64,000 nt of DNA from Armatimonadota bacterium (GCA_041690135.1 JAWLHY010000003.1:416001-480000), one strand, 5' to 3'; counted from the first letter of the stretch, positions 12,264 to 32,188 are shown. Translations and numbers: made by a program. The notes: a model not told the origin generated them from the sequence alone.

Positions 12264-12506
12264 ATGAAGTGGCTTCTCTCCGGCCTGGTGCTCCTCGTCG
12301 CGGTGGTGCATCAGGACACCTGGTTCTGGACCGACAAGACCCTGGTCTTCGGCTTCCTACCGATCGGGCTGGTTTACCATCTCGGCTACTGCCTGCTGGC
12401 GGCGGCCACGATGGCGGTGCTGGTCAAGTGGGCCTGGCCCAGCGAGCTGGAAGCGGTCGAGAGCATGCACGCCGGCGCCGCTGCCGGGGGTGAGAACCGC
12501 TCATGA
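12264..12506 (+). CDS. Small membrane protein accompanying an SSS symporter (DUF3311-like)
   Basis: 80 aa, two TM helices, HQD.WFW...VFGFLP.GL.YH; ATGA overlap with the symporter. Confidence 0.75.
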
Positions 12507-14089
12507 TCCCCGCGCTGATCGTTTTCGGCTACCTTGCGGTCGTCCTCTATATCGGCGTCTTCGCGTTCCGCAAGGGAAAGGAATCCGGCGAGGACTTCTT
12601 CCTCGCCAGCCGCGCGCTGGGTCCGGTGGTGTTCCTGCTCTCCCTGTTCGGCACGAACATGACCGCCTTCGCCATCCTCGGCAGCTCCGGTCTCTCCTAC
12701 CGGATCGGGATCGGCGTGTTCGGGCTGATGGCCTCTTCCTCCGCCCTGGTCATCCCGCTTTGCCTATTCTTCATCGGTACCCGCCTCTGGGGCCTGGGGA
12801 AGCGGTTCGGGCACATGACACAGGTCCAGTTCCTGCGCGACCGCTGGGAGTGCGGCGGCATCGGGACCTATCTCTTCGCCATCACCGCCGCGATGCTGGT
12901 GCCGTACATCATCATCGGCGTGATGGGAGGCGGCCAGACCCTGCAGACGATCAGCGCCTACACGGGTCCGGACGGGCAGGTGCGGCACTGGGTGAGCTAC
13001 GAGGCCGGCGGCGCCGTGGTGGCCCTGGTGGTGATGGGCTACGTCTTCTTCGGTGGGATGCGGGGCACCGCCTGGGTGAACACGTTCCAGACCGCCCTCT
13101 TCCTCTGCTTCGGCACGATCGCCTTCCTCCTGATCGCGAAGAACCTGGGCGGGCTCGACGGGATCATGGAAGGGCTGAAGGCGAACCCGAAATCGGCCAC
13201 GCTCTTGAGCCGCGAGAAGATCCCGCCGCGCGAGTTCTTGAGCTACATGTTCATCCCGCTCTCCTCCATCATGTTTCCGCACGTCGCGATCATGTGCATG
13301 ACGGCCGAGAAGGTGAGCCACTTCAAGAAGACCATCATCTTCTACCCGCTCTGCATCGCCGCCATCTGGCTGCCCTCCGTCTTCCTCGGCGTGGTGGGGG
13401 CCGCGCAGTTTCCCGGTCTTCAACCTGGCCAGACGGACAGCATCATCATCCGGCTGCTCACCCAGAACACCGGGGTATTGATCTCCGGAATCCTGGGTGC
13501 GGGGATCATGGCGTGCGTGATGGCTTCGGACAGCCAGATCCTGGCGCTCTGCACCATGTTCACCGAGGACTGCTTCGCCTATTACGGCGGGAAGGAGCGC
13601 TTCGGGGACAAGGCACAGGTCTGGACCGGGCGCATTTTCATCGTGCTGGTGACGACGCTGGCCTACTTGATCGCGCTCTCCCTGAAGGACAAGGCGGGCA
13701 TCTTCGGGCTGGCTATCCGCTTCGCCTTCTCCGGGTTCGCGGCCCTCGCGCCGATCATGCTGGCGGCGCTCTTCTGGAAGCGGAGCACCAAGTGGGGCGC
13801 GCTGGCGGCGGCCCTATGGGTGACGGCCACGGTACTGGGGAGCTGGTACCTCTACGAGATGTCCGCCGGCATCAAGCCGGCGCCGGGATCGGCCCCGGTC
13901 CAGATCTTCCCCGCGCTCGGCGACCTCTTCCTGCGGACCCCCGCCGACGTTACCGTCTACGGTTACCTGCCGGTGATGCCGATGTGCATCGGCTCGGCCC
14001 TCCTGATGGTTGTGGTCTCCCTGGTTACCCCGCCCCCCAGCCAGAAGACCCTCGACAAGTACTTCCCTCCCAAGTCATCGCTCGCTTGA
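12503..14089 (+). CDS. Sodium:solute symporter (SSS) family protein
   Basis: About 13 TM helices; [24 protein letters not shown] Na-site motif. Confidence 0.9.
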
Positions 14090-31800: not shown

Positions 31801-32188
31801 GGAGAACACCTATCTCTCCATCTTCGCGATCCTGGGCGGCCTGGGGATGATCCTCGGCAGCATCGGCCTTGGCGTGGTGGTCCTCCGCCACGTGCTGGAG
31901 CGCCGCGGCGAGTTGGGCCTTCTCCGGGCCGTAGGGTTCCGGTCGCAGGCTCTCCAGTGGCTCGTCTTCAGCGAGCACTCCCTGCTGCTGGTCCTCGGGT
32001 TGCTGGTGGGCATCGTGGCCGCCGTGGTGGCCGTGCTGCCGTCCCTCCTCTCCCCCGGCGCGGAGGTCCCCTACGCCTCGCTGGCAGTCACCCTCGCCGC
32101 GGTTTTCCTCAGCGGCTTTCTCTGGACCTGGGCCGCGACGGCTCTCGCCCTTCGGAGCCCGGTGATGGCTGCCTTAAGGAACGAATAG
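28868..32188 (+). CDS. Large duplicated FtsX/MacB-type ABC transporter permease
   Basis: 1106 aa with two periplasmic plus TM repeats; EQR..EVGTLLAVGF and ERRGELGLLRAVGF; ends AALRNE. Confidence 0.88.
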   Translation: MTFRQLVLSGLRFHWRSHLGVLLGAILSTAILVGALAVGDSVRYSLRRMALLRLGDTHLALHTQGRFFRTQLADEVSQEVGAPVAPLLILRGTASTNGGETRANRVQVVGIDDRFWKLGATAPLLPSEGEPGVVLNRRLAAKLGVEVGGEVLLRVDKPSLMSRDAPLSSIEDATFSVHLPVAAIAGDEQFGRFGLEANQLPPFNAFVPASLLQENTDLKGRVNALLVGQDSAGKLTQAAANGALGKHWKLADASLQVRELPGAVELRTDRVFVDEATSKAALSAPGARGVLTYFVNELRLGSRAAPYSIVAAMQGGPVPAGLRDNEVVINDWLAENLGAKVGDELTVTYFVVGAMRRLEERKTPFRVARIVPIAGAAADRELMPNFPGVADSENCRDWRPGIPINLKKIRDADETYWDAHRGTPKAFITLAAGQKMWNNRFGNLTAVRYDPPAQSRASVETSLREALNPASIGLFFQPVRNQALQASSQALDFGQLFLGFSFFLIVAALLLTALLFAFGVEQRSEEVGTLLAVGFQPRHVQRMLLLEGASLALVAGGIGAFLGVFYTQAVVQGLSTVWSDAVAQSELRFHAEPLTLAGGAIAGFLVALFSIWLVVRKQARVSARELLAAGAESEARLFGGGVPTRKGLPGVKTALVGILGAVALSIAGILGSHEHAAGIFFGAGGLLLIGGLGACRALLARLERGGLRGPLTLSGLGMRNSVRRRGRSLAVISLLASGSFLVVSIGASRHDPHEGALKRSSGTGGFALYAETTLPVHHDLNSTEGQDVYGLDPKELGNARILPLRLREGDEASCLNLNRAQTPRVLGVQPAVFAQAHAFTFTSLIDKDAARDPWSVLTRPDPSGAVPAVGDMNTVVWGLGKGVGATLPMTDESGRPFEIRIVGILANSVLQGSLLIAEDRFIERFPSQSGYQVFLIDPPAAGSNVEVKAVAEELSRSLEDAGMDVTPTPERLAAFNSVENTYLSIFAILGGLGMILGSIGLGVVVLRHVLERRGELGLLRAVGFRSQALQWLVFSEHSLLLVLGLLVGIVAAVVAVLPSLLSPGAEVPYASLAVTLAAVFLSGFLWTWAATALALRSPVMAALRNE

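Follow-up and report, generated by a model that had tools for sequence, protein, structure and literature searches.

A conserved gene neighbourhood around a HemN-like radical SAM enzyme

We analysed a 64,000-nt stretch of DNA from an Armatimonadota bacterium (GCA_041690135.1 JAWLHY010000003.1:416001-480000; the window). Between positions 12264 and 32188 it carries 15 core genes on the plus strand (g01 to g10 and g13 to g17; Table 1), and we found that this neighbourhood, anchored by a HemN-like radical S-adenosylmethionine (SAM) enzyme (g08), is not due to chance. Synteny across phyla carries this conclusion: the partners of g08 are conserved in order or, where rearranged, still linked. We tentatively read the genes as one modular cluster, present in four phyla, that makes a small exported metabolite from an aromatic acid, and put the probability of this reading at about 0.4. 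Most related loci also encode a flavin-dependent halogenase, which is missing from the window.

Open reading frames (ORFs) of the window were assigned to families by Pfam and NCBIfam profile scans. A first-pass annotation of the same DNA had listed 15 co-directional core genes with their families, and ORF calling across 12264-32188 returned every one of them at the position listed. Of the five start/stop overlaps also claimed, those at 12503 (g01/g02), 26260, 26820 and 28868 hold and measure 4 nt, and the one at 22907 measures 8 nt and depends on the uncertain start of g09. Most homologues of g09 are about 180 aa long and cover about 79% of it, so the start may lie at 23024 rather than 22907, which would abolish this overlap. 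All proteins of the cluster stayed below the curated NCBIfam cut-offs, and the name of a known equivalog is therefore not warranted for any of them. Pfam scans found no polyketide synthase (PKS), non-ribosomal peptide synthetase (NRPS) or terpene domain in the region or its flanks, as had been claimed for the core. The GC content is 0.63-0.70 within the region, similar to that of the flanks.

Table 1. Features of the region 12264-32188 and their occurrence in 80 related loci (tblastn) and in loci with at least 8 kb on the relevant side
Feature	Position	Strand	Description	Related loci	Loci with sufficient flank
g01	12264-12506	+	80 aa, DUF3311-like small membrane partner of symporter; Pfam E 1.1e-6, 29 bits (cut-off 30)	7/80	
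g02	12503-14089	+	528 aa, importer of the sodium:solute symporter (SSS) family; Pfam SSF E 1.7e-38	8/80	8/43 upstream
Inverted repeat	14109-14280		g02-g03 spacer; two 43-nt arms (84% complementary) with 86 nt between them		
g03	14327-15409	+	360 aa, EhpF-like short adenylate-forming enzyme; Pfam AMP-binding	8/80	8/43 upstream
Orphan small ORF	15763-16010	+	82 aa from ATG 15763, preceded by purine-rich stretch; in 631-bp g03-g04 spacer (15410-16039)		
g04	16040-17305	+	421 aa, exported PQQ-like/BamB-like beta-propeller 1; Pfam PQQ_2 E 2.2e-24	22/80	
g05	17320-18738	+	472 aa, aldehyde dehydrogenase (ALDH) fold, probably reductase partner of g03 (EhpG-like); Pfam Aldedh weak, E 1.5e-12	9/80	9/43 upstream
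g06	18959-20131	+	390 aa, iron-containing alcohol dehydrogenase (Fe-ADH); Pfam Fe-ADH E 4e-52 and ADH_Fe_C	15/80	10/43 upstream
g07	20277-21560	+	exported PQQ-like beta-propeller 2, directly 5' of g08	42/80	27/43 upstream (propeller family)
g08	21577-22914	+	445 aa, HemN-like (class C type) radical SAM enzyme; Pfam Radical_SAM and HemN_C; anchor of conserved cluster	80/80	
g09	22907-23566	+	219 aa, UbiC-like chorismate-lyase-fold protein; alternative start 23024	60/80	39/50 downstream
g10	23725-25053	+	442 aa, GT4 glycosyltransferase; Pfam Glycos_transf_1 E 1.6e-25 and Glyco_transf_4	24/80	18/50 downstream
g11/g12	25071-25762	+	inserted toxin-antitoxin-like pair (82-aa ORF and PIN-domain protein) between GT4 and thioesterase genes; not in pathway	0/80	
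g13	25808-26263	+	151 aa, hot-dog acyl-CoA thioesterase (YbgC/4HBT type); Pfam 4HBT_2 E 8.3e-15	36/80	25/50 downstream
g14	26260-26823	+	187 aa, small polytopic membrane protein, possibly DMT-like permease; no Pfam match	22/80	18/50 downstream
g15	26820-28115	+	431 aa, PaaK-family adenylate-forming ligase; Pfam AMP-binding and AMP-binding_C_2	39/80	32/50 downstream
g16	28122-28871	+	249 aa, LolD/MacB-type ABC ATPase; Pfam ABC_tran E 3.2e-37	18/80	16/50 downstream
g17	28868-32188	+	1106 aa, duplicated FtsX/MacB-type permease; Pfam FtsX (2 stretches) E 1.1e-23	12/80	12/50 downstream
Flanking genes			upstream LplA and Uma2; downstream LTXXQ and 188-aa ORF	0/80	

A pattern scan of one genome per species gave at least 599 matches, at least 576 of them encoding a relative, and the best 80 loci (L numbers below) were kept. 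They come from Verrucomicrobiota, Acidobacteriota (mostly Bryobacterales), one member of the Phycisphaeraceae (Planctomycetota) and one Armatimonas. Presence was scored by tblastn at E ≤ 1e-5 and at least 50% query coverage, and gene maps were drawn from an all-against-all clustering of the ORFs. The counts restricted to loci with at least 8 kb on the relevant side (43 upstream, 50 downstream) derive from this clustering, whose totals over all 80 loci differ slightly from those of tblastn (thioesterase 33 against 36; propeller family 46).

Nearly the whole set was found in the same order in an Opitutaceae locus (L053) and in the Phycisphaeraceae locus (L034): propeller(s), SSS, EhpF-like, ALDH, Fe-ADH, propeller, radical SAM, g09, halogenase, GT4, thioesterase, permease, PaaK, ABC and FtsX. 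The reduction module remains beside the core in L037, L078, L079 and L030, though inverted or moved, and nine genes of L032, running from radical SAM to FtsX, follow one another with gaps of at most 9 bp. Smaller sets also occur: in Bryobacterales loci the minimal set is the radical SAM, halogenase and PaaK genes, and in many Verrucomicrobiota it is propeller, radical SAM, g09 and halogenase. The cluster is modular, with a common core and, in only 8-10 of the 43 loci whose upstream sequence is long enough, an import/reduction module. A synteny check set beforehand found the neighbourhood conserved rather than the homologues scattered, and the synteny across four phyla, together with the packing of L032, supports the first-pass proposal of a functional unit.

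In a radical SAM tree from a quick IQ-TREE run, the window was sister to the Armatimonas locus (72% identity; Shimodaira-Hasegawa-like approximate likelihood ratio test 94), and the clades broadly tracked phyla. The titles of four loci (L068, L039, L027 and L057, labelled as metagenome-assembled genomes of Klebsiella sp., Saccharimonadales and Akkermansia muciniphila) conflict with their position among freshwater and soil Verrucomicrobiota, and these conflicts are likely binning or labelling errors in the public records.

If the genes were instead a mosaic of separate adjoining operons (import/reduction, radical SAM core, glycosyltransferase/export) with no single product, this would fit the gaps of 145-631 bp at five junctions of the window (g02/g03, g03/g04, g05/g06, g06/g07 and g09/g10) and the presence of the accessory modules in only a minority of relatives. 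Against it, the modules recur by the core in different phyla and orientations (L037, L078, L079, L030, L034, L053), which is hard to explain were they uncoupled, and the core and export genes of L032 are packed together. We regard such a mosaic as unlikely and prefer the single modular cluster.

Candidate genes for making, activating and modifying an aromatic acid

The structure of g09 was modelled from 43 homologues. The AlphaFold model (predicted local distance difference test score, pLDDT, 90.5) was matched best by Foldseek to the DUF98 protein AF1396 (2nwi; E = 4e-8), followed by UTRA ligand-binding domains, and it matched the E. coli UbiC structures 1fw9, 1g1b, 1jd3 and 1g81 with E values of 2e-4 to 7e-4. 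On this model g09 would have the chorismate-lyase/UTRA fold, and the earlier label 'chorismate-lyase-like' proved right at the fold level. An hhalign alignment with E. coli UbiC pairs the motifs DMT..LE, REVxL/REILL (including the Arg), PLG and YGRRN/WGRRS and ends two residues before the UbiC Glu. R115 (in 43 sequences) and E214 are invariant in the family; we take E214 to be the equivalent of the UbiC Glu, and a product-binding role of both the Arg and the Glu is likewise assumed. By sequence, a profile search of the g09 family against PDB entries found only 2nwi (E = 0.023) and did not reach UbiC. Annotation at JGI names many of the homologues chorismate-pyruvate lyase. A Rosetta-stone search among longer proteins found no fused form of g09, which is weak evidence.

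Among PDB entries, g15 is nearest to small-acid ligases, namely 2-hydroxyisobutyryl-CoA synthetase (E = 1.9e-53) and PaaK (E = 5e-49). The thioesterase g13 scored 61.9 bits against TIGR00051 (cut-off 68.7). Taken together, the UbiC-like fold with its aligned Arg, the EhpF homology of g03 (below), the PaaK-family assignment of g15 and the JGI names of the g09 homologues suggest a small aromatic acid, for instance 4-hydroxybenzoate, as the probable substrate, in keeping with the aromatic acid of the first-pass annotation.

The cysteines C64, C68 and C71 of the CxxxCxxC motif of g08, and its GGGTP motif (G115-P119), were invariant in 24 sequences. A model of g08 matched HemN (1olt) over its full length (E = 2.2e-27; template modelling scores 0.76/0.78). 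These motifs, the HemN_C domain and the predicted HemN fold place g08 in the HemN-like class C superfamily, as in HemN, HemW, ChuW, HutW and NosN/NocN. Unlike these enzymes, g08 forms a family of its own, lying under every curated equivalog cut-off and in a non-tetrapyrrole gene context. It is not HemN proper by NCBIfam (TIGR00538, 179.8 bits; cut-off 324.95), and it also stays under the cut-offs of HutW (174.6/400), STM4012 (173.6/380) and HemW (168.9/205.4). Its homologues are 62-86% identical among the 120 listed, where the few named sources are Armatimonadota, Actinomycetota and Chloroherpetonaceae. Methylation is the commonest activity of the non-HemN members of class C.

The relatives add a halogenase gene. 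The first-pass annotation had recommended looking for extra genes co-occurring in homologous loci, and this one, invisible from the window alone, is present in 61 of the 80 loci and in 42 of the 50 with at least 8 kb downstream. It lies directly 3' of g09 or, in loci that have no g09, of the radical SAM gene. The 61 members (about 426 aa) match Pfam Trp_halogenase (E = 1e-29 to 2e-30) and, among PDB entries, 8zop, PltA, 5buk, ChlB4, CndH, Bmp2 and CmlS (E = 2e-60 to 2e-40). In NCBIfam, CmlS scored best (about 200 bits, below the cut-off), followed by QhpG and geranylgeranyl reductases. The motifs GWFWYIP and FLDPVFSSG are present, as is a Lys that lines up with the PltA motif KKFG. Judged from these matches and motifs, the family is a true flavin-dependent halogenase; its PltA/CndH-like subgroup presumably acts on thioester-tethered substrates.

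A tblastn search of the 64-kb window with three of these homologues gave a best E value of 0.32, and no Trp_halogenase domain was found in the scanned ORFs. With no halogenase gene in its cluster, the window falls outside the flavin-dependent halogenase gene clusters of the bmp/baa/ambigol type. It shares this lack with others: of the 73 rows that have a halogenase or at least 3 kb of downstream sequence, 12 are without the gene, the window included. The halogenase-less loci are scattered on the radical SAM tree, where well-supported branches force at least 6 changes, and two of them (L078 and L079) are otherwise complete clusters. We conclude that the window carries a variant of the cluster without halogenase, provided that no such gene is present in another part of the genome.

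The import and reduction module

The NCBIfam matches of the symporter g02 (PutP, PanF, MctP, ActP) are all far under their cut-offs. In phmmer, g03 matched the EhpF structures 3l2k and 3hgu with residues 15-360 aligned to 18-366 (E = 1.6e-47). Full-length homology, a length of about 360 aa and the lack of the usual C-terminal ANL domain identify it as an EhpF-type enzyme, as the first-pass annotation had labelled it. EhpF itself is said to have been proposed to serve in the reduction of an aromatic carboxylate to the aldehyde. Homologues of g03 are 53-69% identical in the eight loci that have the gene.

Aligned to the ALDH KauB, g05 retains the catalytic Cys (GRSC) and has His at the position of the general-base Glu; both features recur in 10 of 10 family members. 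This pattern fits thioester reduction rather than aldehyde oxidation, and g05 looks like a reductase. A LuxC/LuxE identity of g05/g03 was rejected: neither model came up for the window proteins in the Pfam scans, and g03 matches EhpF. Among NCBIfam models, g06 is closest to ErcA (280 bits; cut-off 550).

We found that g03 and g05 are predicted to interact, with an interface score (interaction prediction score from aligned errors, ipSAE) of 0.69 (0.72, 0.69 and 0.69 in three runs) against 0.00 for the best of three controls. The runs agreed in at least 89% of contacts, with partner pLDDT of at least 86, and the predicted interface involves conserved residues of both proteins (g05, 17-48; g03, 210-245 and 274-275). 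The ipSAE mark is reached by 116 of 157 solved complexes and by 2 of 215 mismatched pairs, counts that hold only roughly here, the prediction having been built on small custom alignments (10 and 9 rows). The prediction supports a g03-g05 complex, short of proof. In relatives the two homologues are adjacent; in the window the propeller gene g04 lies between them. The reductive direction proposed in the first-pass annotation gains from the reductase look of g05 and its predicted binding to g03, with the order of steps going beyond these data.

The same genes could serve uptake and processing rather than biosynthesis: an external acid, aromatic or short-chain, imported by the SSS protein here or by TonB-dependent receptors in Bryobacterales, would be thioesterified and then transformed by the radical SAM enzyme and the flavoenzyme for catabolism, detoxification or salvage. 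The symporter pair stands at the head of the cluster, TonB-dependent receptor-like genes (family f36) lie just 5' of the radical SAM gene in the Bryobacterales loci L002, L003, L029 and L042, which are without g09, and a PaaK enzyme with a hot-dog thioesterase is the logic of phenylacetate catabolism. This reading meets three objections: ring-cleavage, oxygenase, beta-oxidation and dearomatising genes were not found in the window, and none was recognised among the conserved families; a UbiC-like gene, a GT4 and a biosynthetic-type halogenase are unexpected in catabolism; and g05 is without the Glu needed for aldehyde oxidation. We hold uptake and processing to be a doubtful explanation, and equally so the idea that the pump would then expel a toxic by-product. 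Biosynthesis of an exported metabolite remains our preferred reading.

Two putatively exported beta-propellers

Signal peptides of the two propellers were judged by eye. The N-terminus of g04, MRWIAVSLVAGGIVAALPAQAQE, resembles a Sec signal peptide; translation of g07 probably starts at the ATG at 20427, and the protein would then begin with a Sec-type signal peptide. Against Pfam Beta-prop_ACSF4, g07 scored 307 bits (cut-off 133), and against PQQ_2 E = 2.9e-59; these two models fit the propellers best. The pyrroloquinoline quinone (PQQ) enzyme model PF01011 (cut-off 26.7) gave 20.6 bits for g04 and 56.7 bits for g07, the latter spanning only about 100 of 595 model positions, and TIGR03075 gave 49.6 and 79.2 bits, respectively, against a cut-off of 480. 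At about 380-420 aa the propellers are BamB-like (TIGR03300, 202.8 bits; under the cut-off of 285.2).

A further explanation is that the cluster supplies a cofactor, a quinone-like or phenolic molecule exported as prosthetic group or ligand of the propellers, in the manner of PQQ in quinoproteins. The main reason this idea survives is the propeller gene directly 5' of the radical SAM gene in 42 of 80 loci, to which the minimal Verrucomicrobiota set, the exported look of both propellers and a MacB-type pump, presumably acting in the periplasm, may be added; the halogenase family also gives matches, all below cut-off, to QhpG, LodB and GoxB, whose role is the maturation of protein quinone cofactors. 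Yet the propellers resemble BamB and score weakly against the PQQ-enzyme model, acidobacterial loci often have no propeller by the core, and a putative binding pocket is without evidence. We rate this explanation as improbable. A long shot would be a new exported phenolic or quinone-like molecule of at least several hundred species in the four phyla, halogenated in most lineages and halogen-free here, made by new ring chemistry of g08 on a CoA-tethered hydroxybenzoate and serving the periplasmic propellers as prosthetic group or specific ligand. If this were true, the molecule and the propellers would be a new cofactor system for 'empty' quinoprotein-like proteins. The tight linkage to exported propellers offers in any case a testable idea on the ligands of 'PQQ-like' proteins.

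Candidate glycosylation and export genes

The homologues of g14 are almost always directly 5' of the PaaK-like gene, usually after the thioesterase gene, in the 22 loci that have them. Its earlier label 'DMT-like' has no other basis than the automatic name of look-alike atlas clusters (DMT permease, score 0.98). The ATPase g16 scored 267.8 bits against LolD (cut-off 307.75); g17 matched MacB_PCD (E = 1.9e-5; 25.5 bits, slightly under the cut-off of 27) and, weakly, the ADOP family. An ATPase and an FtsX permease with a MacB-like periplasmic core identify g16/g17 as a MacB/LolCDE-type exporter, with the LolD and LolCE equivalog cut-offs unreached.

Least probable of all is an envelope glycolipid, in which a fatty acid would be activated and reduced in LuxE/LuxC fashion to a fatty alcohol, glycosylated by the GT4 and exported in DevA/DevC fashion as in heterocyst glycolipids: g16 scores 189 bits against the DevA family, g17 weakly matches DevC, and both the acid-to-aldehyde-to-alcohol module and the GT4 are present, but g03 matches EhpF, a phenazine-acid enzyme, g03 and g05 are without LuxE/LuxC Pfam matches, g15 is nearest to small-acid ligases, the UbiC-like g09 and the aromatic-type halogenase of relatives indicate an aromatic substrate, and the scans found no fatty-acid or polyketide synthase genes.

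A proposed route and how it fares

Gene families, folds, synteny and residue patterns are what we observed; from them we infer the chemical steps, their order and the product of the exported-metabolite route. In this route g09 would make 4-hydroxybenzoate or a close analogue from chorismate, or the acid would be imported via g01/g02. The ligase g15 would then activate the acid, most simply as a CoA thioester, because compact relatives such as L032 leave no space for a carrier gene. The radical SAM enzyme g08 might modify the ring or a side chain, C-methylation being the likeliest chemistry for the enzyme class, and in most relatives, though not in the window, the flavin-dependent halogenase would halogenate the thioester-tethered substrate. 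Release or proof-reading of the thioester would fall to g13. The predicted g03-g05 complex could reduce the carboxyl to the aldehyde and g06 the aldehyde to the alcohol, after which g10 would add a sugar. Finally, g14 and the MacB-type pump g16/g17 would deliver the product to the envelope or carry it across, and there it might meet the exported g04 and g07.

Several points weigh against this route. Its first enzyme is the least secure: g09 has no Pfam family even at E ≤ 1 and no NCBIfam family, the probability of its hhalign match to UbiC (E = 2.9e-5) is only 73.5%, the UTRA fold is also that of the ligand-binding domain of regulators, and g09 is not obligatory, being missing from Bryobacterales-type loci that have radical SAM, halogenase and PaaK genes. 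The near-equal scores of g08 against HemN, HutW, STM4012 and HemW (169-180 bits), all below cut-off, single out no one chemistry, and PaaK-family enzymes can form esters or amides instead of CoA thioesters. The propellers have no explained role in the route. As the window has no halogenase, its product cannot be the one made by most relatives, unless such a gene is encoded in another part of the genome. The full route fits a minority of relatives (import/reduction 8-10 of 43; GT4 and pump 12-18 of 50), and the 80 loci are the closest relatives rather than a random sample. Of the first-pass interpretation as a whole, the functional unit, the aromatic substrate and the reductase are supported; the step order, the chemistry of g08, the molecule glycosylated by the GT4, the final product and any part played by the propellers go further than our data.

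Comparison with known systems

A literature search surfaced only bmp and Baa analogues and no characterised pathway with this gene combination, as the first-pass annotation had held. The bromophenol cluster with chorismate lyase and halogenase is described in PMC10579414 as a verified three-gene cluster with a cytochrome P450 (bmp-type, tetrabromobiphenyldiol). BaaA/BaaB of Planctomycetales strain 10988 are proposed only; according to the source, the expected methyltransferase was not found in the locus and no mutant was obtainable (10.1101/723874). As described there, the bmp and Baa clusters share with our relatives a UbiC-like gene beside a flavin-dependent halogenase (61 of 80 loci having the latter), the lack of a PKS/NRPS core and a 4-hydroxybenzoate starting ring. 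Unlike the bmp clusters so described, the window has neither halogenase nor P450. The relatives' halogenase is PltA/CndH-like, whereas BaaB is called Bmp5-like (10.1101/723874). Compared by description, the HemN-like radical SAM enzyme, PaaK-like ligase, thioesterase, EhpF/EhpG-type module, GT4, MacB-type pump and propellers are additions of the present cluster. What is new is this partner set around a proposed stand-alone-enzyme route to a hydroxybenzoate-derived metabolite; the route type itself is already known.

In a phenazine cluster table of PMC11278526, ehpF (AMP-binding) and ehpG (ALDH family) are neighbours. The likeness to the EhpF/EhpG step of the D-alanylgriseoluteic acid pathway lies in a full-length EhpF homologue, g03, paired with the ALDH-family g05 and followed by an alcohol-forming step. 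Unlike that pathway, the window has no phenazine core genes, and a propeller gene separates g03 from g05.

For the mycobacterial p-hydroxybenzoate glycoconjugates, PMC7205293 states that Rv2949c makes p-hydroxybenzoic acid and that the AMP ligase FadD22 activates it. So described, they follow the same logic as the route proposed here, a dedicated acid-making enzyme and then an AMP ligase. Our cluster differs in having no PKS, in the PaaK-like family of its ligase and in its phyla, and its radical SAM and reduction modules have no counterpart in that route. There the later steps are glycosylation and export to the envelope. Rv2949c presumably belongs to DUF98, the family of the best structural match of g09.

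The carrier phyla are abundant in soil and fresh water, and their small-molecule chemistry is almost unexplored. Strong conservation in at least 576 species-level genomes and the lack of a PKS/NRPS core point to a common overlooked metabolite, which is probably halogenated in most lineages and as such bears on natural organohalogen formation. With g08, the class C radical SAM enzymes would gain a functional branch that is new and lies beyond the chemistry of tetrapyrroles and thiopeptides. The EhpF/ALDH pair would add to a two-protein type of carboxylate reduction that has been little studied.

Insertions, spacers and flanking genes

The first-pass annotation had described small selfish inserts within the run of genes. 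For one of them, g11/g12, possibly a toxin-antitoxin pair of the VapBC type, this is supported: g12 has a PIN domain (E = 7.7e-17), and the overlapping upstream ORF g11 has no family. A second insert finds no such backing, since the g03-g04 spacer with its orphan ORF has no Pfam or NCBIfam match and no DNA match in related loci; the ORF is probably outside the pathway.

The inverted repeat between g02 and g03, whose 17-mer core occurs in the window only in its two arms, might represent a small mobile element or form a hairpin with a regulatory role. The 220-bp spacer 5' of the Fe-ADH gene contains a direct repeat of 26 nt (96% identical; 18772-18797 and 18900-18925), possibly a paired regulator-binding site. 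When the spacers were compared by blastn with the window and the loci, these two local repeats were all that came up, and there were no remnants of a deleted halogenase. A promoter and terminator scan of 12500-32499 gave sites no more numerous than in shuffled sequence. An Rfam scan of 9000-36000 for riboswitches and other RNAs returned only a weak CRISPR-DR28 match (E = 0.13, below the gathering threshold; 32303-32326); it overlaps the only promoter-like site, just 3' of the cluster (32303-32344), probably by chance.

Functions unrelated to the cluster are encoded on both sides. Upstream lie a branched-chain amino-acid ABC system, GcvH and a lipoate ligase, the latter two (10771-11944) immediately 5' of the cluster, with a gene for a putative Uma2-family endonuclease (10033-10752) between the ABC-transporter genes and GcvH. 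GcvH also precedes the propeller and radical SAM genes in two closely related Pedosphaera-like loci (L062 and L070), which may be coincidence. Downstream are PSD1/DUF1501 proteins and a two-component system. The former, at 38754-42765, are a PSCyt2/PSD1 (DUF1549/DUF1553) protein and, after it, a DUF1501 protein; such a pair is typical of Planctomycetota and Verrucomicrobiota, in contrast to the radical SAM gene of the cluster, which groups with the Armatimonas locus. A signalling block on the minus strand (45972-55025) encodes a hybrid histidine kinase/response regulator, a CheB-like methylesterase, a 1055-aa GAF/HisKA/triple-receiver protein and a PAS/GAF/SpoIIE phosphatase.

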